64,000 nt of DNA from Patescibacteria group bacterium (GTDB lineage Bacteria > Patescibacteriota > Kazan-3B-28 > UBA10110): positions 201,832 through 265,831 of the forward strand of contig JBAZXK010000002.1 of the NCBI GenBank assembly GCA_041659905.1, in the 5' to 3' direction. This document shows positions 3,001 to 56,411 of the stretch, in pieces. The position numbers were made by a program, and so were the translations under genes. Numbering within the stretch: position 1 is the first letter of the stretch; every line of letters begins with the position of its first letter. The notes beneath the pieces are model-generated. The model was given only the letters and a program-made list of their open reading frames with translations, searched no databases and had not been told where the DNA came from.

Positions 3001-5902
3001 GCTGATCTTTACCTATCATGGTGTGCCAAGTTTAAAGAGCACTGTTACAGCCACGAGTCCGGTTAAAGCCGATGGAGTCGCCGAATCCACTGTCACCGTT
3101 ACCCTGATTGATACTTATGACAATCCGGTCCCATCGTTGAACACAAAAGTTGAGTCTAACCGGAATTTAGACACTGATCAAGAGGGCCACCTTATTATTC
3201 ATGACAACATTGTTCCGCCCACCAAAAATGCCAACGATCAGGGAATAGCTATTTATAAGGTGAGCTCTCCCCTGATTGGCCGGGCGGATCTGCAGGGTTA
3301 TTATGCCCCGCCGGTTGCCGTGCCGGACGATCTTTCAGAATTACCGAATTGGATCGGTTATAAGACGGCGAATGTTTTATTTACCAATCAAGGTCAGATT
3401 ATCTCTTTGTTCCCGGAATCGGCTAAACAAGGGCAAATAATCAAAGATCCGACACCGATGGTAGCTGTGGGTGATCTTGTCCAGTGGGATGCATCAAAGA
3501 CGACAGTTATGTTCCTTCCTTCAGAAGGAATCAGTTTCCAGTATCAACAAGGTAACAGCGGCTGGGACGACATAGAAAAACTGATGCTATATGCAGACAA
3601 ATCGGTAACTAATTTTAGGGCGATGGTAGACCCCAGTTTAGCCAATGCTCAATTGTATCTTAAGATTACAGAGGGAGGTGGTTCTTTCTACACTGCTGGC
3701 TATCCTGACAATATTACTGTGAATGTGACGTCAAGCTATGCCGAATTTCCTTACATTACAAGTGAAACGCCCGGTATTCTAAAAATAGAAGTTAGACTAA
3801 ATAATGCTAGCGGCAATAAGTTAGGTGAACTCTGGCTGCCTATGGCAAAATCGGAGAACTCCCTTGTCAGTATTGCCATCGATGCCTCTAAGCATTCTGT
3901 GGCCGTCAATGAAGCTATCGAAGTCACAGCTCAACTAAAGAATATCCACGGTACTGCCTATCTTGGACAAACATTTACATTTACTAAAGACGATGGCACC
4001 AGCGGATATTTCACTCCCGCTAATGGCCAGGTTACTGATACAGATGATGACGGCAAGGTAGTGATCCAATATACGCGGACTGGCACTGGCGGTGGTACCG
4101 TGCACATTTTTGCCACTGCTACTTATGAGACAGAGCTAGCCTCTGATCGGGTTGCTATTAGAAAGTTGGTGGATGCCTCGGCTAATCAAACTATTACCTA
4201 CGACTCCACTGGTCTAGATGTGCAAACAGAGGATGCCTCAAGACTGTCACTTACTTTTGGGGGCACCACTGGTGTGACTGTGGGTTCAGCTGCTCCGGTA
4301 GGAATCTGGACTTTCTTGGTTTCAACTGATCTTGGTTTGACTACACCTGCAGAAGAAACTACCACGTTCTTGGTAGAACCGGCGGGTCCTACTGCTCCGA
4401 CAATTCTAACACTCGACCCCGCCGAGGGTCTGCGCGGTCATGGTTACGATATCGAGATTGATGCTGTTAATACAGGCTTTGAATGGAATATCCCCGGCTC
4501 TAATTCGGTCGTGACCTTTACGCCAGTGAACGGGGGCGATCCGGTGACTACGCCGATTGTAGCTAGTTCCACTAACAGTTTTACACATCTGACTGTCCGT
4601 TGGGATATTGCGGCTAATGCTAAAGTGGGCAATTGGAACGTGAAGGTGACCACAGGGAACCAAGTGGCTGAGATGCCCTTTAACCATGACTTTAAAGTGA
4701 CTACCGAAAGCGGTTATTTCTTAGATGTAGTAGCTGTTCCCTCTAGTATCGCTCGTGATGGATCGGCCACATCTACTATCACTGCCACCGCCGGGTTTGT
4801 TGAGTTAACCGGAGATATAACACCATTAGACGGCGATCCTATTACTTTTGACAAAGGCACAGCGGGTGGCTCTTTGACTCCGGACGGCACCACTACTAAA
4901 GCCGATGGATCGCAAACCTGCGTTTATCAAACCGATGGTCCCGAAGATGCTACTGCGGAGACTAATATCCAAGTATCAGTGGTAGATACTGCCCAAACTT
5001 TACTGGGGACTGTCAAAATTATCAGAACTGGCATGAATCCTAATGACATTGATGTAACTAAATCTTGGATCTCGGCCACATCCCCGGTGCCAGCCTCGGG
5101 CGATCCCTTGGATGCTTCACTGGTAACAGTCACGGTGCGCAATGGTTTGAGTCAGCCATTAAGCGGTATAGTGGTAACCTTGAGTACTAATCATTCGGAG
5201 GATACAATCCTTACCACTCATCTTAATCCCCAGCCGACCGACACTGATGGTCGGGCTATCTTCGAAGTAATGTCGATGATGCCGGTGCATACCAGCACTA
5301 TCACCGCTACTTTTGGCAATGGCCTCCAAAAGCAAGTGAATGTATTATTTGAAGATCCCACTCTCCTCTCTCGGCGCTTCTTCGCGTTGACTGTGCCTTT
5401 CCAGGCGAGAGATTATGATAATCAAGTTTGGACGGTGATAAAACACAATGGAGCCGAGAAGAACATGGATGATGAGTACAAGAAAAATACTCGCACTGCC
5501 ACCAATCCAGATTTATTAACCGACTTAGAGGGAATTAGATTCTATTTGTATAACGGAACTAATGATAGTTACACCGTTTGGGTAAAGGGCAAAAATCATC
5601 TGGCGGCAGCTAAGACCACCGTTAAGACAAGCGACGCTGTTAGCGGTGTAATCAGTATTAATTTCAGTACCATCATAACCCACGGTCTGAAAGTGGGCGA
5701 TATTGCCATCGCTTCCGGAGGCACGCAAATTAAGCCGGGCTATCATGATAATACTATTGGCTCTGTCGACAGCAAGGCCGTTTACGATCGTTTCTACGGT
5801 AGCTATCTAGACTTGCCTGACTTAGATTTTAACCAAAGTGTTAACTTATTGGATTTCACTTATACCTTAGCCAACTGGGGGGCAGGTGCCCCGTTGCCAT
5901 AA
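98..5902 (+). CDS. Giant (~1935 aa) secreted/surface protein: N-terminal signal-anchor helix, Kelch/galactose-oxidase-like beta-propeller repeats, then multiple bacterial Ig-like (Big) domains
   Basis: Long ORF from the track. N-terminal hydrophobic stretch LFLVSVAVLVTVVFF. Repeated YLYLIGG / YLYVISG / GRLHIIGG / NTLYVVGG blades. Repeated T/V-rich Ig-like segments such as TATSPVKADGVAESTVTVTLIDTYDNPV. ATG at 98 follows a TTG at 95. Confidence 0.6.
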   Translation: MSIGERLTNLWQYRRVTPRQVTLFLVSVAVLVTVVFFNQDIVNLFRWLRGSAAGEPNPFGNLAWADVPASNFGRSNAKLIDVTDPAGNRYLYLIGGIETKTVDGNKRLSLIKSVERIPLNQTTGAIDAGSVWEKNDTNGTWGQMYAGHAEFGVVQSTDKRYLYVISGDIHIPNPLDFVNYSPLLFSTIEQLDLTNINLGWQPIALLTGVNFYPEVIQFNGRLHIIGGVYGNPFSAGYSWSTGGQDPYEIKDPLLLTDNDTNPVDLWKWDDKYEDLPVIGDLPVALPDSGIGADIDTGSGGPEVDPGGLSIGIGGMGGTGMVMADDGVHIQQVGGHAQNLSDTLTRGLISGEFVTTVSEHYIINPVTLAIDFKGELGKKSGVPITTSGNDYTGELSEIWELGKVMHIAHLRMWLDDVSTSPLGGFSVFTLYPAPQGRYGHKVFINNNTLYVVGGASWAAPIEKIYRPPVGNMFFINIYSFWVIDDDTHPFSKGDNFDRTILGFLRDDYYKYLGNITYQWDNVAEVWKGTNTVSNTSPLPSDYAFQSGSPLQGSGRAFFAWAELHPTETTTEFLAIGGLENNLTPDSDADNNWGLPLGVRATAASWPSVNYGLSVWETYRVEKFAGSSWETRAPLPNIGNDIIGVYGATAVGGGTGAIVFGGQTELIVDPEQPFFNDHVPAYERTVNTSGFGYLDSGGDGDTGTGTWWPMQNIQYARAYPATLDVRTATIGGGETIYIYKANGSTVGDGDGLPNNTSQVEALGPIQYGGAGVVDWSKSFIEVEPAPGNPAGYYNWPGTSETTLEILADRHDYALVTVNLMDYYGNPATSAGLDQVPGGLAVSLYTEYASGLSRSPKPAIKKNIKGDPTSTPDWIRIKGQPTSSTGGLLSPEWDNQFVLVDMGGANGGEDGNPDTTAGQVQFYISSSHDTFDTDGITPSPIEALAYILDTNETAFSVLADGALNTLPHKNELIFTYHGVPSLKSTVTATSPVKADGVAESTVTVTLIDTYDNPVPSLNTKVESNRNLDTDQEGHLIIHDNIVPPTKNANDQGIAIYKVSSPLIGRADLQGYYAPPVAVPDDLSELPNWIGYKTANVLFTNQGQIISLFPESAKQGQIIKDPTPMVAVGDLVQWDASKTTVMFLPSEGISFQYQQGNSGWDDIEKLMLYADKSVTNFRAMVDPSLANAQLYLKITEGGGSFYTAGYPDNITVNVTSSYAEFPYITSETPGILKIEVRLNNASGNKLGELWLPMAKSENSLVSIAIDASKHSVAVNEAIEVTAQLKNIHGTAYLGQTFTFTKDDGTSGYFTPANGQVTDTDDDGKVVIQYTRTGTGGGTVHIFATATYETELASDRVAIRKLVDASANQTITYDSTGLDVQTEDASRLSLTFGGTTGVTVGSAAPVGIWTFLVSTDLGLTTPAEETTTFLVEPAGPTAPTILTLDPAEGLRGHGYDIEIDAVNTGFEWNIPGSNSVVTFTPVNGGDPVTTPIVASSTNSFTHLTVRWDIAANAKVGNWNVKVTTGNQVAEMPFNHDFKVTTESGYFLDVVAVPSSIARDGSATSTITATAGFVELTGDITPLDGDPITFDKGTAGGSLTPDGTTTKADGSQTCVYQTDGPEDATAETNIQVSVVDTAQTLLGTVKIIRTGMNPNDIDVTKSWISATSPVPASGDPLDASLVTVTVRNGLSQPLSGIVVTLSTNHSEDTILTTHLNPQPTDTDGRAIFEVMSMMPVHTSTITATFGNGLQKQVNVLFEDPTLLSRRFFALTVPFQARDYDNQVWTVIKHNGAEKNMDDEYKKNTRTATNPDLLTDLEGIRFYLYNGTNDSYTVWVKGKNHLAAAKTTVKTSDAVSGVISINFSTIITHGLKVGDIAIASGGTQIKPGYHDNTIGSVDSKAVYDRFYGSYLDLPDLDFNQSVNLLDFTYTLANWGAGAPLP

Positions 5903-6660: not shown

Positions 6661-7078
6661 TTTTGATTTGGAATTTACGCTGATTATCTTTGATGCCAGT
6701 GATTTTTATCCAAATAGTATCCTTCGGCAGATATGGCTTAATCTTTTCTGCCCACTCGATCGCTACGATATTGGTTTTAGCGTTTTCTAAAATTTCTGCT
6801 GTGAGCAGTGGATCGGCGCCTAGTCGGTAAACATCATAGTGATAGAGGAGAAACTTCTTTTTGGGAATATTATAAATTTTTTCCAGCACAAAAGTCGGAC
6901 TGACAATTTTCCCCTTAATCCCCAATCCTTTAGCTAATCCTTGGATAAAAGTAGTCTTGCCGCCTCCTAAAGTAGATTCGAAAGCAATAATGCCAGGATG
7001 AATTATTTTTTTACCTAAAGCTTCTCCCAGTTTCTGAGTTTCCGCGGCACTATTGGTGATGTAAATTTGGATAGCCAT
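6650..7078 (-). CDS. tsaE: t6A biosynthesis ATPase TsaE
   Basis: P-loop TLGGGKTTF plus SPTF and HYDVYRL motifs of TsaE/YjeE. Confidence 0.7.
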   Translation of the reverse strand: MAIQIYITNSAAETQKLGEALGKKIIHPGIIAFESTLGGGKTTFIQGLAKGLGIKGKIVSPTFVLEKIYNIPKKKFLLYHYDVYRLGADPLLTAEILENAKTNIVAIEWAEKIKPYLPKDTIWIKITGIKDNQRKFQIKNAE

Positions 7079-9344
7079 ATCTTTTTCTATAAGTCCACAT
7101 TATGGCAGAAAGCAACCCGCTCATCCAGAAAAATGTCCCCCAGCGCCATAATTCTCCAGTATCGACTAAATTAAAGTTGTCAGTTTCGTTCCCGGAAGCA
7201 AAGCTGATATCGTTGACTGCTCCGGGTGTAGTTTCATTCGACCAAAACCAGCGTTCATTCGGAGCCAATACATAGGCATAGCCCTGTTTGACCGAACCAT
7301 CGTAATCAAGTTCATCGATCAAATTATCTTGACTGTCCAGTAATTGCAATTCTTCTCCGCCCGAATTGTTCAGGCGGATATGAGTGGTGGAATAGGCTAA
7401 TAAAAGATATTGTTGAGGTTCTAACACAACAGCAGTCGGTTCATCAACTTCTTCTGTTGCAGCTATTTCGACCGAATCCAAAGCGTTAATAATATAAACT
7501 TTTCCGCTAGCGTCCAGTAGTTGCCAACCGGTAATATCAACTGTTTGGTCCCCGGGATTATAAAGCTCAATAAATTCGTTGTCTCCGGCATTGGGATTAG
7601 GTAAAATCTCGGTAATAATGATTTGTTTCAAAAGACCAGAAGTTCCACTATTGCTGGTTCTCCCCGGGCTAGCCACAGTCAGCTCGATCTGGTTAGATTT
7701 AACATCGTCAGCATTATAACTGCCTACGACAGTGAAAAAATATTTAGTTTTTGAGACTAAATTTTTCACGGGATAGGTAGTTGCAGATGATGTCGTTTGT
7801 CCTATTTGAAGTCCTAGTTGCCCTGATTTTTCTGATTGATAGATTTCGATGTCCCCGATGGCTCCCGGCAAATTGATTTCCCAGGTTAACATAGCAGAGG
7901 TGGCCGTAATGCTGTTGGCTTTTAATTTAATCACTACTTCGTTGGGTTGCAGGCTAGTGGGATCATTATTAGTGTTATCTAAAATAACATCTTCCTCGTC
8001 TTCGTCCGTGCTCTCGTACAGATTAGCTGCATTAGGAGTCACGCGCTGAGTCCATTGCCAATTGCCATTGATTTTAGAGTAGGAATTTCCTTCGGTAGCG
8101 GTGCCATAATTAGGCGTAACTTCTACTATTACGTCGTTGGGTTGTAATAATCTAGCCTGATCGCCAGTATCGTTTAAAGCGAGATGAGTTTGAGACTTAG
8201 GAAAAGTTAAATATTGATGCGGACTGATAATAAGGTCGCTAGAGATGGTGTAAACAGCCGATCCACCCGGCGACTGATCATCTAATTTCCAACCCTTTAG
8301 GTTAGCCGAATTGTCCCCGGAATTATATAGCTCAATAAACTCTTCGTTTCCAGACGGGGGGTGAGGATAGAGCTCGCTGAGAGTGATCTTATCGGAATAG
8401 ATTGGAATTTCTGGTTCCTCTTCCGGTTCAGTAATAGTGACAGCATTGGATAAAATGGCTGTTTGCCCATCCGGGTTGATAACAATCACGTCCCATTCCC
8501 CTGCTTCAGCGGAAGAGAGATTGAATTTTGCTGTATCAATTGTAGTAGAAGTAAGTACGTTTACATTAGTAGCCCAGATAGATAAATCATCCTTTTCTAA
8601 TTTAATTTGAGTAACCCCAGTGGTAATAAAATTTTCTCCAATAATTTCTTCAATTTCCCAAATAGTTTCAGTTTCGGCTTGATCAGGAATAATTTTGCTG
8701 ATTACCGGGGTGGCTGGTGCTGGTAGAGAGTTTTCAGCCAGAGGGGTGCCCAAGTCAGGTCGATCTGTATCTAGATTGATGGCCGCAGTTGCTTCATGCC
8801 AATTTGTTTTTTCACCACCAGGACCATACGCTATGTTGCGTTCCATAGTTACTCCCTTAATCCCGCAAAAATTAACACCACTGCTTTGCCCGTCTCCGGC
8901 AGTATCGATAATCTGATCGGACTGGTCATACAGAAAAAGCTTGAATGGATTATCCAATATCGAAACAGCCGTATCGATATAATCAGGATCGATATTCAAA
9001 ACTGAAGGACCGCCCCCAAATTGGTAATCCTTACCGTTATTGGCAATTAAAAAATATCCCGAAGCGGGAATAAGATGATTTTGACCGATGTTGATAGTAA
9101 CCATTGCAACTTTTTGTTGGCCATTAGCATCAAGTCGTCTGATTTCCCAATCAATCAAATCGATTTCTTCATCAGTGGTGTTTTTGAGTTCAATCCACTC
9201 ATCAGCAATGCTCACGGTACTGCCGGCCCACGCCACTTCGTTGATCACGATGGGCGGAATTTCTTCTTCGGCTATACTGACCATAGGCTGAAAAATAGCT
9301 AGCAATAAACAAATACTAACAACAATTCCCCCAATTTTTTTCAT
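7050..9344 (-). CDS. Secreted protein with two lamin-tail domains (LTD) and fibronectin-III-like beta domains
   Basis: Signal peptide MKKIGGIVVSICLLLAIFQPMVSIA. VINEVAWAGS...EWIELKN and ITEILPNPNAGDNEFIELYNPG match LTD motifs. Confidence 0.6.
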   Translation of the reverse strand: MKKIGGIVVSICLLLAIFQPMVSIAEEEIPPIVINEVAWAGSTVSIADEWIELKNTTDEEIDLIDWEIRRLDANGQQKVAMVTINIGQNHLIPASGYFLIANNGKDYQFGGGPSVLNIDPDYIDTAVSILDNPFKLFLYDQSDQIIDTAGDGQSSGVNFCGIKGVTMERNIAYGPGGEKTNWHEATAAINLDTDRPDLGTPLAENSLPAPATPVISKIIPDQAETETIWEIEEIIGENFITTGVTQIKLEKDDLSIWATNVNVLTSTTIDTAKFNLSSAEAGEWDVIVINPDGQTAILSNAVTITEPEEEPEIPIYSDKITLSELYPHPPSGNEEFIELYNSGDNSANLKGWKLDDQSPGGSAVYTISSDLIISPHQYLTFPKSQTHLALNDTGDQARLLQPNDVIVEVTPNYGTATEGNSYSKINGNWQWTQRVTPNAANLYESTDEDEEDVILDNTNNDPTSLQPNEVVIKLKANSITATSAMLTWEINLPGAIGDIEIYQSEKSGQLGLQIGQTTSSATTYPVKNLVSKTKYFFTVVGSYNADDVKSNQIELTVASPGRTSNSGTSGLLKQIIITEILPNPNAGDNEFIELYNPGDQTVDITGWQLLDASGKVYIINALDSVEIAATEEVDEPTAVVLEPQQYLLLAYSTTHIRLNNSGGEELQLLDSQDNLIDELDYDGSVKQGYAYVLAPNERWFWSNETTPGAVNDISFASGNETDNFNLVDTGELWRWGTFFWMSGLLSAIMWTYRKRYGYPNLHHQ

Positions 9345-48081: not shown

Positions 48082-48548
48082 ATGAATCAATCAGAAGAAT
48101 ATCAAAAAGAAGTTTTAGTATTAGCTAAAAAAGCCTTCCGGAAAAAGAAATTCCGGTAGGTGCTATTGTGATAGATAAATCCGGACAAATTATCGGTAGG
48201 GGATATAATTTAGCCCACGCCAAAAAAGATGTTACCGAGCATGCCGAAATTAGAGCCCTCCGGCAGGCCTTCAAAAAGACGGGTGATTGGCGATTGGACG
48301 ATTGCCAGTTAATAGTTAATCTAGAACCATGCTTGATGTGTCTGGGCGCTATAGCTAATGCGCGTATCAAAGAAGTAAGTTATTTTTTAGCTGATCCCCA
48401 ATTCGGCTCGGTCGAAAGTCGCTTAACTAAAAAACAACTGACTAAACTATTTCCGAAACTGATCATAAAAAAGATAAACGACGCTGGAGAGACTAAGCAA
48501 TTATTACAAGATTTCTTTAAAGAATTACGTATTAAAATATATATTTAA
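48082..48548 (+). CDS. tadA: tRNA-specific adenosine deaminase TadA (N-terminus interrupted by a 1-nt frameshift near 48141-48152)
   Basis: HAEIRALRQA and NLEPCLMCLGAI (zinc-binding). Upstream ATG 48082 encodes MNQSEEYQKEVLVLAKKAFRKK, which continues as EIPVGAIVIDKSGQIIGRG only after a frame change. The track ORF starts at GTG 48168. Confidence 0.65.
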
Positions 48549-49349: not shown

Positions 49350-49440
49350 GGAAGCGTGGCCGAGCGGTTGAAGGCGGCGCTCTCGAAAAGCGTTATACCG
49401 GTTTCCGGTATCAGAGGTTCGAATCCTCTCGCTTCCGCCA
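49350..49440 (+). tRNA. tRNA-Ser (CGA)
   Basis: ggaagcgtggccgagcggttgaaggcggcgctctcgaaaagcgtt + long variable arm ataccggtttccggtat + agaggttcgaatcctctcgcttccgcca. Confidence 0.85.
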
Positions 49441-53509: not shown

Positions 53510-53548
53510 GCGAAGCCAGGCGTAGCTTCCGTAAGGAAGCGAAGACTG
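53510..53548 (-). other. Conserved tRNA 3' trailer motif, copy 2 (downstream of tRNA-Gly on the minus strand)
   Basis: Minus strand reads cagtcttcgcttccttacggaagctacgcctggcttcgc. Hairpin gcttcc-ttac-ggaagc. Confidence 0.5.
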
Positions 53549-53620
53549 GAGCGGGATACCAGAATCGGACTGGCGCCTCAACCTTGGGAAGGTCGCATTC
53601 TACCACTAAACTAATCCCGC
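53547..53620 (-). tRNA. tRNA-Gly (CCC)
   Basis: Reverse complement gcgggattagtttagtggtagaatgcgaccttcccaaggttgaggcgccagtccgattctggtatcccgctcca. Loop TTCCCAA. Confidence 0.85.
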
Positions 53621-55180: not shown

Positions 55181-55259
55181 CCGTTTTAGAACTGCAAAAC
55201 CAGTGGCTCAATAATCCGTCGGATGGCGGATTGGGGCGCTGGAGCCGGAGGAGGGATTC

Positions 55260-55334
55260 GAACCCTCGACTTGCTGTTTACGAAACAGCTACTCTACCAC
55301 TGAGTTACTCCGGCATATTCATACACCTAAGATA
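55260..55334 (-). tRNA. tRNA-Thr (CGU)
   Basis: Reverse complement gccggagtaactcagtggtagagtagctgtttcgtaaacagcaagtcgagggttcgaatccctcctccggctcca. Loop TTCGTAA. Confidence 0.85.
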
Positions 55335-55402: not shown

Positions 55403-56119
55403 TTACATTGCTCTTACAGTTTTTACAGGCAGATTGTTCCCCTTCGATGTGCGGATATTAGCCAATTTGGCTATTTCCTTGAGATCTGCGTCCCAGTCGA
55501 TGGGTCTGTTCAAGGTCGTACTGACTAAGTCAGCGGCCTGTTTAATGCACTGAAACAACTTGAACAGATCTACATTAGCGCCCTTCCAAATGTTTGCGAC
55601 GTCTTGGTTACCAATCGCCAATGTGGTTTTGGTGTTATTGCGTGAGCATGCCTCTGGCCAAAGCAATTCCACAAGACAATCACCATCTACTAAAGGAAAT
55701 TCTTCCTCCCGCCACTCTATGAATGGGTCTGTGGTGGGGGGATGAATGTGCACTTTTGCGTATCCACCCGTATTGACGCTGAATAACGCATCCCGGCTGA
55801 ATAACCTATCAATCACATTGTCCTTGGGTATCGATTGATAATTTAAGAAGTTATTCGTCGGAGGCAATATAGCAACGTTTATGAATTCGAGAACGGGACC
55901 ATACCAATCCCTAAAAATGTTTCCCCCGACGCGCGTATCACGGAAATGAATCGTTACTATTAATTCTCCCTCTCTCTCGGATACTTTTTCTTGCAGGCCG
56001 ATAAGAACTTGGCGATGTTTGTTGTACTCGTCCTGGTCAGGAATAGGATGAGCATATCGATCCAAAAACTTATCAATAGCTTTAACCCCATGATAAACCT
56101 TCGTTTTATTGCTAGGCAT
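55403..56119 (-). CDS. Hypothetical protein (238 aa) in a tRNA-flanked islet
   Basis: ORF only. No motif recognised. Confidence 0.4.
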   Translation of the reverse strand: MPSNKTKVYHGVKAIDKFLDRYAHPIPDQDEYNKHRQVLIGLQEKVSEREGELIVTIHFRDTRVGGNIFRDWYGPVLEFINVAILPPTNNFLNYQSIPKDNVIDRLFSRDALFSVNTGGYAKVHIHPPTTDPFIEWREEEFPLVDGDCLVELLWPEACSRNNTKTTLAIGNQDVANIWKGANVDLFKLFQCIKQAADLVSTTLNRPIDWDADLKEIAKLANIRTSKGNNLPVKTVRAM

Positions 56120-56334
56120 TTAAGCCTCCTTTACCTGTTCACAGGTAGGTACTTTCTAATGTTAATATGCGAGAACATCTTATAGTATCAAAAATAACCC
56201 CGCTGGCATAGACGAATACCCAAATTACAAACCGAAGCACGCAGTGCTGTTTGTAATTTGGAGAGGAGCAGTGACAAAGCGTTTATGACTTTTGCAAAAC
56301 TAGCAAAAGGATAAAGTGGAGTCCACTGCGACGA

Positions 56335-56411
56335 TGGTCGGGGTGCCGAGATTCGAACTCGGGACCTCACGCCCCCTAGACGTGCGCCATAAACCACTAG
56401 GCTACACCCCG
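56335..56411 (-). tRNA. tRNA-Pro, anticodon loop CUAGGGG (anticodon AGG if the stem is canonical; A34 is unusual)
   Basis: Reverse complement cggggtgtagcctagtggtttatggcgcacgtctagggggcgtgaggtcccgagttcgaatctcggcaccccgacca. Acceptor stem identical to tRNA-Pro(CGG). Confidence 0.75.

Follow-up and report, generated by a model that had tools for sequence, protein, structure and literature searches.

The stretch analysed here, referred to throughout as the window, comprises 64,000 nucleotides (nt) of a contig from a Patescibacteria group bacterium (JBAZXK010000002.1, assembly GCA_041659905.1), and carries a gene for a proline tRNA whose anticodon, AGG, begins with a genomically encoded adenosine (A34). 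The window has a GC content of about 44% and encodes RNase Y, MnmA, glycosyltransferases and other ordinary bacterial genes. Seven tRNA genes lie in it between positions 46195 and 56411, grouped within 10 kb around tadA, the gene for the tRNA adenosine(34) deaminase. The tRNA-Pro(AGG) gene occupies the 77 nt of positions 56335-56411 on the minus strand, including an encoded CCA terminus, and its identification is based on ARAGORN, Rfam, identical copies in relatives and covariation. ARAGORN calls it a tRNA-Pro with anticodon agg, and the Rfam tRNA model RF00005 matches it over the whole model with 59 bits (gathering score 29) and E=6.7e-11.

Read directly, the 5' part of the RNA is CGGGGUG UA GCCU AGUGGUUUA UGGC G CACGU CUAGGGG GCGUG, and the part following GCGUG is AGGUC CCGAG UUCGAAU CUCGG CACCCCG A CCA. 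The anticodon loop (56373-56379) is thus C32 U33 A34 G35 G36 G37 G38, with the anticodon at 56375-56377 and A34 corresponding to the t at position 56377 of the plus strand. An earlier note on this DNA had read an anticodon stem cacgt/gcgtg closing a 7-nt loop CUAGGGG with anticodon AGG and G37, and had proposed a run of a tRNA finder; its reading is reproduced exactly by ours, ARAGORN and Rfam agree with it, and ARAGORN calls neither a GGG anticodon nor a pseudogene. The features expected of a TadA substrate are present, namely U33 directly before the genomic A34, a 7-nt loop and a 5-bp stem. The positions that support the tertiary structure form a complete set (U8, A14, G18G19, A21, U33, G53, U54U55C56, A58 and C61), to which the sequence adds a G15-C48 pair. 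The sole irregularity is a U13-U22 mismatch in the D-stem, which is U-A in relatives.

The identity elements recognised by prolyl-tRNA synthetase (ProRS), as known for the E. coli enzyme, are G35, G36, A73 and the C1-G72 pair. All of these, together with the encoded CCA, are found in the window gene and likewise in all copies from its clade, and this complete set of elements, as read from the genes, shows a proline identity. G36-G37 is also invariant in the clade and constitutes a TrmD site, at which methylation to 1-methylguanosine (m1G37) is predicted. As a separate observation on the loop, C32 and G38, both invariant in the clade, could form a Watson-Crick pair, and U33 and G37 a wobble pair; the minimum-energy fold of the naked RNA closes the anticodon loop down to 3 nt in this manner. 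The m1G37 modification would be expected to oppose such closure. Tuning on the ribosome and recognition by TadA are two roles that the C32-G38 combination might have.

Copies of tRNA-Pro(AGG) that are either identical or compensatorily diverged were recovered from at least 9 related Patescibacteria assemblies, always with the loop CUAGGGG. All 77 nt are identical in L112, a GTDB species representative labelled Candidatus Saccharibacteria, in which identity to the window is no more than about 80% in the coding DNA on either side. The gene is likewise identical in L122, L123 and L124, again amidst diverged flanks. A pattern built on the backbone of this tRNA, in which the stems as well as positions 32, 34 and 38 were left as N, was searched in a metagenome collection and returned 2 further contigs, both with A34 and both with diverged flanks; two matches are too few for tracing the ancestral state at position 34. 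More distant relatives were obtained from the DNA 10 kb either side of tadA homologues, whose source organisms are labelled Patescibacteria group or, in one case, candidate division Kazan. The TadA proteins of these lineages are 83% (L124), 74% (L125), 71% (L126/L127), 68% (L132) and 66% (L129/L130) identical to that of the window, and each of the lineages has a tRNA-Pro(agg) with the loop CUAGGGG.

The variation seen within this clade comprises full compensatory changes in the T-stem, an alternation of C-G and U-G at the 27-43 pair and an alternation of U-G and U-A at the 31-39 pair. When 5 distinct sequences from the clade are compared, 99% of the cells in the cloverleaf are paired and 4 pairs have changed on both sides, whereas in controls with slid 3' partners pairing drops to 31-57%. 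The compensatory stem changes in combination with an invariant loop point to purifying selection on a working tRNA, and the boundaries of the 7-base loop are fixed by the 31-39 pair, which is kept through the change from G to A at 39. We accordingly regard the gene, with high confidence, as that of a genuine A34 tRNA-Pro which is functional, and the pattern of substitution in the sequences indicates that it is kept by selection in a clade of Patescibacteria (the candidate phyla radiation, CPR).

The second element of the locus is tadA, on the plus strand at 48082-48548, 7.8 kb from the tRNA-Pro(AGG) gene and directly after a second tRNA-Pro gene, tRNA-Pro(CGG). A six-frame motif search located HAE...PCLMC at about 48239, within an open reading frame (ORF) at 48168-48548 that encodes the catalytic body of the enzyme. 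The four best PDB matches of this ORF are all TadA structures (2nx8, 2b3j, 1wwr and 1z3a), its best NCBIfam match is the TadA model NF008113, and it contains both the CDA-fold zinc site HAEIRAL...LEPCLMC and the C-terminal helix motif LLQDFFKELR. The intact protein scores 96.7 bits on NF008113, which is under the curated cut-off of 150 bits; on the same model the TadA of an outgroup CPR bacterium (P0067), encoded beside a tRNA-Arg(ACG), scores 92.1 and that of Halomonas 175.9. As the outgroup protein scores no higher, the shortfall reflects CPR divergence in general and is not specific to the clade.

The N-terminal helix is not part of the ORF at 48168-48548; its coding sequence lies upstream in another frame and starts with an ATG at 48082. 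The frame is broken at a run of 5 A residues (48142-48146), where an independent assembly of the same species, L133 (ENA ERZ27249449), has 6. Over 5,549 bp this assembly, found through a neighbouring 182-aa ORF, shares 99.98% identity with the window, the extra A being the single difference, and it encodes an intact TadA of 155 aa. A protein at NCBI (P0001, 132 aa), 99% identical to that of the window, is truncated at the same point. The break site (48139-48159) reads G-AAA-AAG and looks slippery, and a programmed -1 frameshift would restore the protein exactly; this explanation was rejected, as the frame is uninterrupted in relatives and L133 has one more A. The same two facts make a homopolymer miscall or a rare variant the simplest reading of the break, as opposed to a pseudogene of the species.

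The remaining tRNA genes of the window, all called by ARAGORN, are tRNA-Asp(GUC) at 46195-46271 on the minus strand, tRNA-Arg(CCU) at 47605-47679 (plus), tRNA-Pro(CGG) at 47792-47866 (plus; also identified by Rfam), tRNA-Ser(CGA) at 49350-49440 (plus), tRNA-Gly(CCC) at 53547-53620 (minus) and tRNA-Thr(CGU) at 55240-55314 (minus). The tRNA-Pro(CGG), with the loop UUCGGGU, is a C34 isoacceptor lying directly upstream of tadA, and bears out the mention of a second tRNA-Pro within the window in the earlier note. Six of the seven tRNAs have either C34 (Arg CCU, Pro CGG, Ser CGA, Gly CCC and Thr CGU) or A34, and this set is conserved in relatives. In all 7 clade lineages tadA is found within a cluster of the same tRNAs (Asp GUC, Arg CCU, Pro CGG, Pro AGG, Ser CGA, Gly CCC and Thr CGU), of which the order has been rearranged repeatedly. 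Ser(CGA), including in the near-outgroup loci, is always downstream of tadA, indicating a conserved tadA-Ser(CGA) core, and the nearest or directly upstream tRNA of tadA is Pro(CGG) or Pro(AGG) in all seven lineages. In L126/L127 it is tRNA-Pro(AGG) itself that lies 320 bp upstream of tadA.

No tRNA-Arg(ACG), the usual bacterial substrate of TadA, occurs within 10 kb of tadA in any of the 7 clade lineages. Three outgroup lineages, from the CPR and from other groups, were sampled (TadA identity to the window: L135, 58%; L131, 54%; L136/L137, 47%), and in each of them a tRNA-Arg(ACG) lies 160-600 bp from tadA, with no tRNA-Pro nearby. The linked segments span 9669-10456 in L131, 1715-2856 in L135, 2954-3656 in L136 and 2460-3162 in L137.

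Certain features of the tRNA loop and of the enzyme bear on whether A34 might be edited. The tRNA-Arg(ACG) of the two nearest outgroups has the loop CUACGGA, which coincides with the CUAGGGG of clade tRNA-Pro(AGG) at positions 32, 33, 34, 36 and 37, and position 32, a C in both, is U in the clade's own tRNA-Pro(CGG). The loop nevertheless departs from the TadA consensus YUACGAA of E. coli and YUAMGRA of S. pyogenes on account of G35 and G38. An alignment of 120 TadA sequences, including 59 from the clade, shows no variation at the catalytic H, E, C and C. The residue directly before the LEPC zinc motif is N in 59 of 59 clade sequences and T in 18 of 18 from the nearest outgroup; two residues before this site the clade has I in place of Y, and both N and I also differ from the residues of more distant TadAs. 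A further change, from GA to FL in the loop equivalent to G105/A106 of E. coli, was considered as a clade-specific signal and dropped as evidence, because the outgroups bearing tRNA-Arg(ACG) share it. Every locus of the clade has tadA beside the tRNA cluster, so that the candidate enzyme is encoded in the same genome as the tRNA. Among the proline codons of 40 window ORFs, CCU accounts for 0.25, CCC for 0.23, CCA for 0.18 and CCG for 0.34, much as in other codon boxes. The near equality of CCC and CCU was counted toward I34, though codon usage does not discriminate between A34 and I34, since CCC is within the reach of an unmodified AGG anticodon too.

The interpretation that we put forward is that tRNA-Pro(AGG) would be expressed and its A34 deaminated post-transcriptionally to inosine (I34) by the clade's own TadA, yielding an IGG anticodon. 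Such an anticodon would read CCU and CCC, and CCA weakly, while CCG would be left to tRNA-Pro(CGG) and CCA probably to a UGG tRNA encoded elsewhere in the genome. Taken as a whole, the statement that a functional tRNA-Pro(AGG) has its A34 deaminated to I34 appears to us evenly balanced between true and false. Its secure part is the prediction that tRNA-Pro(AGG) is the reader of CCU and CCC, possibly of more, in these organisms. It probably stands in the slot held in most bacteria by tRNA-Pro(GGG), which we infer to be absent here. Expansion of the substrate range of TadA has a precedent in tRNA-Leu(AAG) of Oenococcus and Streptococcus, for which I34 and a broadened specificity of the enzyme have been shown. 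The presence of tadA in the cluster, the exchange of tRNA-Arg(ACG) for tRNA-Pro beside it and the likeness of the loops keep an expanded or changed substrate range of TadA a live hypothesis.

Several considerations weigh against deamination. The modification is predicted from DNA sequence, and the loop differs from that of every known TadA substrate at positions 35 and 38, both of which are G, while E. coli TadA is strict for loops of the UACG type. When the chromosomal proL gene of E. coli was altered by a G34A change, a mature, unmodified and functional Pro-tRNA(AGG) resulted, and in the same organism an orthogonal tRNA with an AGG anticodon that was not deaminated decoded all four CCN codons. 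Neither codon usage nor conservation hence demands inosine. In O. oeni only 2 of 4 A34 tRNAs are modified. The coincidence of the substitution in TadA with the appearance of tRNA-Pro(AGG) is a single phylogenetic event, unreplicated, and the retention of tadA would be fully accounted for if these genomes encoded a tRNA-Arg(ACG) at some other place. The earlier note had taken A34 to imply an expanded range of TadA; the tadA gene, the synteny and the loop context speak for the expansion, while the implication itself does not hold in view of the unmodified yet functional Pro-tRNA(AGG) of E. coli.

The distribution of A34 tRNAs in other bacteria is pertinent to this question. The earlier note regarded A34 as normally restricted to tRNA-Arg(ACG) in bacteria, a generalisation that fails before the known tRNA-Leu(AAG) as well as tRNA-Thr(AGU), the main non-Arg A34 tRNAs of the bacterial literature, reported in Lactobacillales, and before at least 119 further genes for tRNA-Pro(AGG). 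A GtRNAdb survey of 2026 counted 695 ANN genes other than ACG in 4047 bacteria, without drawing special attention to Pro(AGG). We searched a lineage-independent tRNA-Pro(AGG) pattern on one genome per GTDB species; the resulting counts are a lower bound, because even among relatives of the window some genes escape the pattern. ARAGORN assigns 119 of the 120 matches listed, and thus at least 119 species representatives, to tRNA-Pro(agg). By hand count, about 54 of the matches listed are of Cytophagales type (Cyclobacteriaceae, Chryseolinea, Roseivirgaceae, Flammeovirgaceae and others), 23 come from other Bacteroidota or Chlorobiota, 23 from Bacillota (Lachnospiraceae, Erysipelotrichaceae and others), 9 from Pseudomonadota (mostly Succinivibrionaceae) and 11 from other groups. 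The Cytophagales look like an unreported case of clade-level replacement of tRNA-Pro(GGG) by tRNA-Pro(AGG). The loop is UUAGGG[A/U], with U32, in 117 of the 119 matches listed, nearly always UUAGGGA, and CUAGGGG appears among them only in L112.

These natural tRNAs from Cytophagales, Lachnospiraceae, Erysipelotrichaceae, Succinivibrionaceae and other groups share with the window gene the anticodon and, often, a position beside a tRNA-Pro(CGG). Their backbones are unrelated to it, with at most 54 of 74 positions matching among the matches listed, and they are unlinked to tadA save in L050, a metagenome-assembled genome of Chlorobiota. Here Pro(AGG) and Pro(CGG) stand side by side about 230 bp from tadA (4869-5303, minus strand), within the interval 4474-5303. 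One such case in about 119 loci listed places the linkage at chance level. At the positions that set the CPR clade apart, the TadA of L050 is canonical, and convergent changes of TadA in other tRNA-Pro(AGG) lineages were therefore discarded as a line of evidence, L050 being the only one of the loci listed with a nearby tadA.

The foremost alternative is that tRNA-Pro(AGG) is functional and conserved while its A34 stays unmodified, and that the sole substrate of TadA is a tRNA-Arg(ACG) encoded beyond the DNA covered here. Such a tRNA-Pro, which forms G-C pairs with both of the first two codon positions, would read CCU and CCC, and in part CCA and CCG, by two-out-of-three decoding. We judge this possible, at a shade under an even chance. 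The two E. coli tRNAs cited above furnish precedents, and the unedited members of the O. oeni set show that unmodified A34 tRNAs exist in nature. The 119 or more tRNA-Pro(AGG) genes of unrelated bacteria, mostly with a UUAGGGA loop unlike that of any TadA substrate, likewise favour it, as do the canonical enzyme encoded beside one of them in L050 and the lack of any shift in proline codon usage in the window. What it leaves unexplained is C32, when both the other tRNA-Pro(AGG) genes and the clade's tRNA-Pro(CGG) have U32, the departure of tRNA-Arg(ACG) from the vicinity of tadA exactly where tRNA-Pro(AGG) appears, and the clade-fixed change by the zinc site of TadA.

Those three features are joined in a more specific form of the deamination interpretation, in which TadA has been re-targeted: tRNA-Arg(ACG), ancestrally both the neighbour of tadA and the substrate of its product, would have lost its place at this locus and perhaps disappeared from the genome altogether, and an enzyme altered from Y-x-T to I-x-N next to its active site would deaminate a tRNA-Pro(AGG) whose loop had evolved C32 and so come to resemble the former substrate. 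We advance this proposal tentatively, as somewhat less than an even chance. An associated suggestion of the earlier note, that I34 and C34 tRNAs make up a two-tRNA proline set as in eukaryotes, is unlikely. Eukaryotes usually keep a proline tRNA with a UGG anticodon, CCA is not avoided in the window (18% of the proline codons in the 40 ORFs), and most of the cluster is made up of supplementary C34 tRNAs, a composition suggestive of a full set of three tRNAs for each box.

Readings that deny a functional AGG gene fare far worse, and even jointly the non-functional and artefact explanations are very improbable. According to one of these, the gene would be degenerate or redundant, a dispensable copy changed not long ago by G34A or another mutation, or A34 would be a sequencing error. 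The window does hold at least one single-base error or variant, in the tadA homopolymer, and the U-U mismatch in the D-stem might be regarded as a sign of decay. Nonetheless, A34 and the entire loop are invariant in at least 9 independent assemblies from different samples, the stems change in a compensatory fashion, and the tertiary and identity positions are all canonical, which leaves this explanation only a slight probability. The weakest reading, mentioned as an alternative in the earlier note, is a GGG anticodon in a non-canonical 8-nt loop enlarged by an extra G, as in frameshift suppressors of the sufA6/sufB2 type; despite an AGGGGG run that lets the register shift by eye and the non-canonical minimum-energy fold of the naked RNA, it is refuted by the 7-nt loop with U33 directly before A34 in both ARAGORN and Rfam, by the alternation of U-G and U-A at 31-39, and by the fact that the available alternative pairings (C32-G38 and U33-G37) shrink the loop and do not enlarge it.

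A functional tRNA-Pro(AGG), whether edited or not, may be compared with the better known systems. The tRNA-Leu(AAG) of Lactobacillales (Streptococcus, Oenococcus, Lactobacillus and Lactococcus) is likewise a clade-fixed non-Arg A34 tRNA of a four-codon box, apparently replaces the G34 isoacceptor, and occurs in genomes that keep a homodimer-type TadA. The window tRNA differs from it in belonging to the proline box, with G35 in place of A35, and to Patescibacteria and not Bacillota, in a genome that is not AT-rich and shows no visible shift in codon usage; moreover, the editing of tRNA-Leu(AAG) has been shown by experiment, whereas the window tRNA is known from its gene. The cytosolic tRNA-Pro(AGG) of eukaryotes, converted to IGG by ADAT2/ADAT3, a heterodimer that needs the whole tRNA, has the same anticodon, codon box and G37, and is also accompanied by a CGG isoacceptor. 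The eukaryotic loop is UUAGGGU. The window tRNA is distinguished by its bacterial acceptor stem (C1-G72, A73), by the loop CUAGGGG and by having a TadA of 155 aa as the only candidate enzyme. The engineered tRNAs of E. coli (proL G34A and the orthogonal tRNA) resemble it in that AGG works on a bacterial ribosome; they show that such a tRNA is viable and can replace GGG. They are artificial, unmodified at position 34 and have E. coli-type loops, while the window gene is natural, ancient in its clade and has a C32/G38 loop.

The tRNA-Pro(AGG) of the window joins the small class of non-Arg A34 tRNAs already known to be fixed in a clade, and its genomic link to tadA is unusually suggestive; the surprise at its presence is lowered, because genes for tRNA-Pro(AGG) are common in other bacteria (at least 119 species). 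It bears on two open questions, the near-absence of anticodons starting with A in bacteria and the passage from a TadA with one substrate to the eukaryotic ADAT with eight. The natural bacterial cases studied so far are tRNA-Leu(AAG) as well as tRNA-Thr(AGU) of Lactobacillales, to which the clade adds the proline box as a third, and here the candidate enzyme, the tRNA and the outgroup contrast all lie on short stretches of DNA in a CPR clade. If A34 is edited, the clade would possess a natural TadA tolerant of G35. Should re-targeting of TadA be the correct account, this would be the first bacterial IGG anticodon, produced by a natural TadA homodimer for which a purine at position 35 is acceptable, and an independent bacterial step toward the multi-substrate state of eukaryotes. 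If, on the other hand, A34 remains unedited, the clade would offer a natural and long-lived unmodified A34 tRNA in a four-codon box, in support of a recent experimental claim that unmodified A34 tRNAs are not deleterious.

Some further features of the cluster concern its mobility. Thr(CGU) directly adjoins Pro(AGG) in L112, L122, L123, L124 and L132, and does not do so in L125 and L129; the spacing is 45-110 bp in L122 and L112. In the window the two genes are split (55403-56262) by a 238-aa ORF, for which Pfam, NCBIfam and PHROG gave no match, and by a long hairpin (56221-56262) that comes after it, and in L123 (2460-3149) by a 229-aa ORF unrelated to it. The two ORFs look like independent insertions at one spot. 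The tRNA clusters around tadA in relatives, besides having their order inverted repeatedly, contain scattered small genes for GIY-YIG endonucleases and 23S rRNA intervening-sequence proteins (L124 9550-9822; L125 8187-8480, 13765-14055 and 10670-11017; L126 15512-15763; L128 2-241; L129 14092-14391; L132 10528-10773). The cluster is in effect a hot spot for small mobile elements.

Finally, a conserved, highly structured element of about 155-215 nt was encountered directly 3' of a tRNA of the cluster, following tRNA-Pro(CGG) in the window (47867-48075, plus strand) and tRNA-Asp(GUC) in L124 (about 6958-7143, minus) and L132 (about 8110-8262, minus). The window copy folds at -75.7 kcal/mol (z=-5.9), and RNAalifold predicts 42 pairs for the element, 7 of them compensatory, with two added hairpin insertions in the L124 copy. 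Neither an Rfam match at E<=1 nor an ARAGORN call was obtained for it. All copies end like the 3' half of a tRNA, CCA included. In the window this end is Pro(CGG)-like, with an exact 18-nt repeat (47849-47866 and 48058-48075); it is Pro(CGG)-like also in L124, despite following tRNA-Asp there, and Asp-like in L132. The element could be the decayed arm of an integrative element or an undescribed tRNA-linked RNA.

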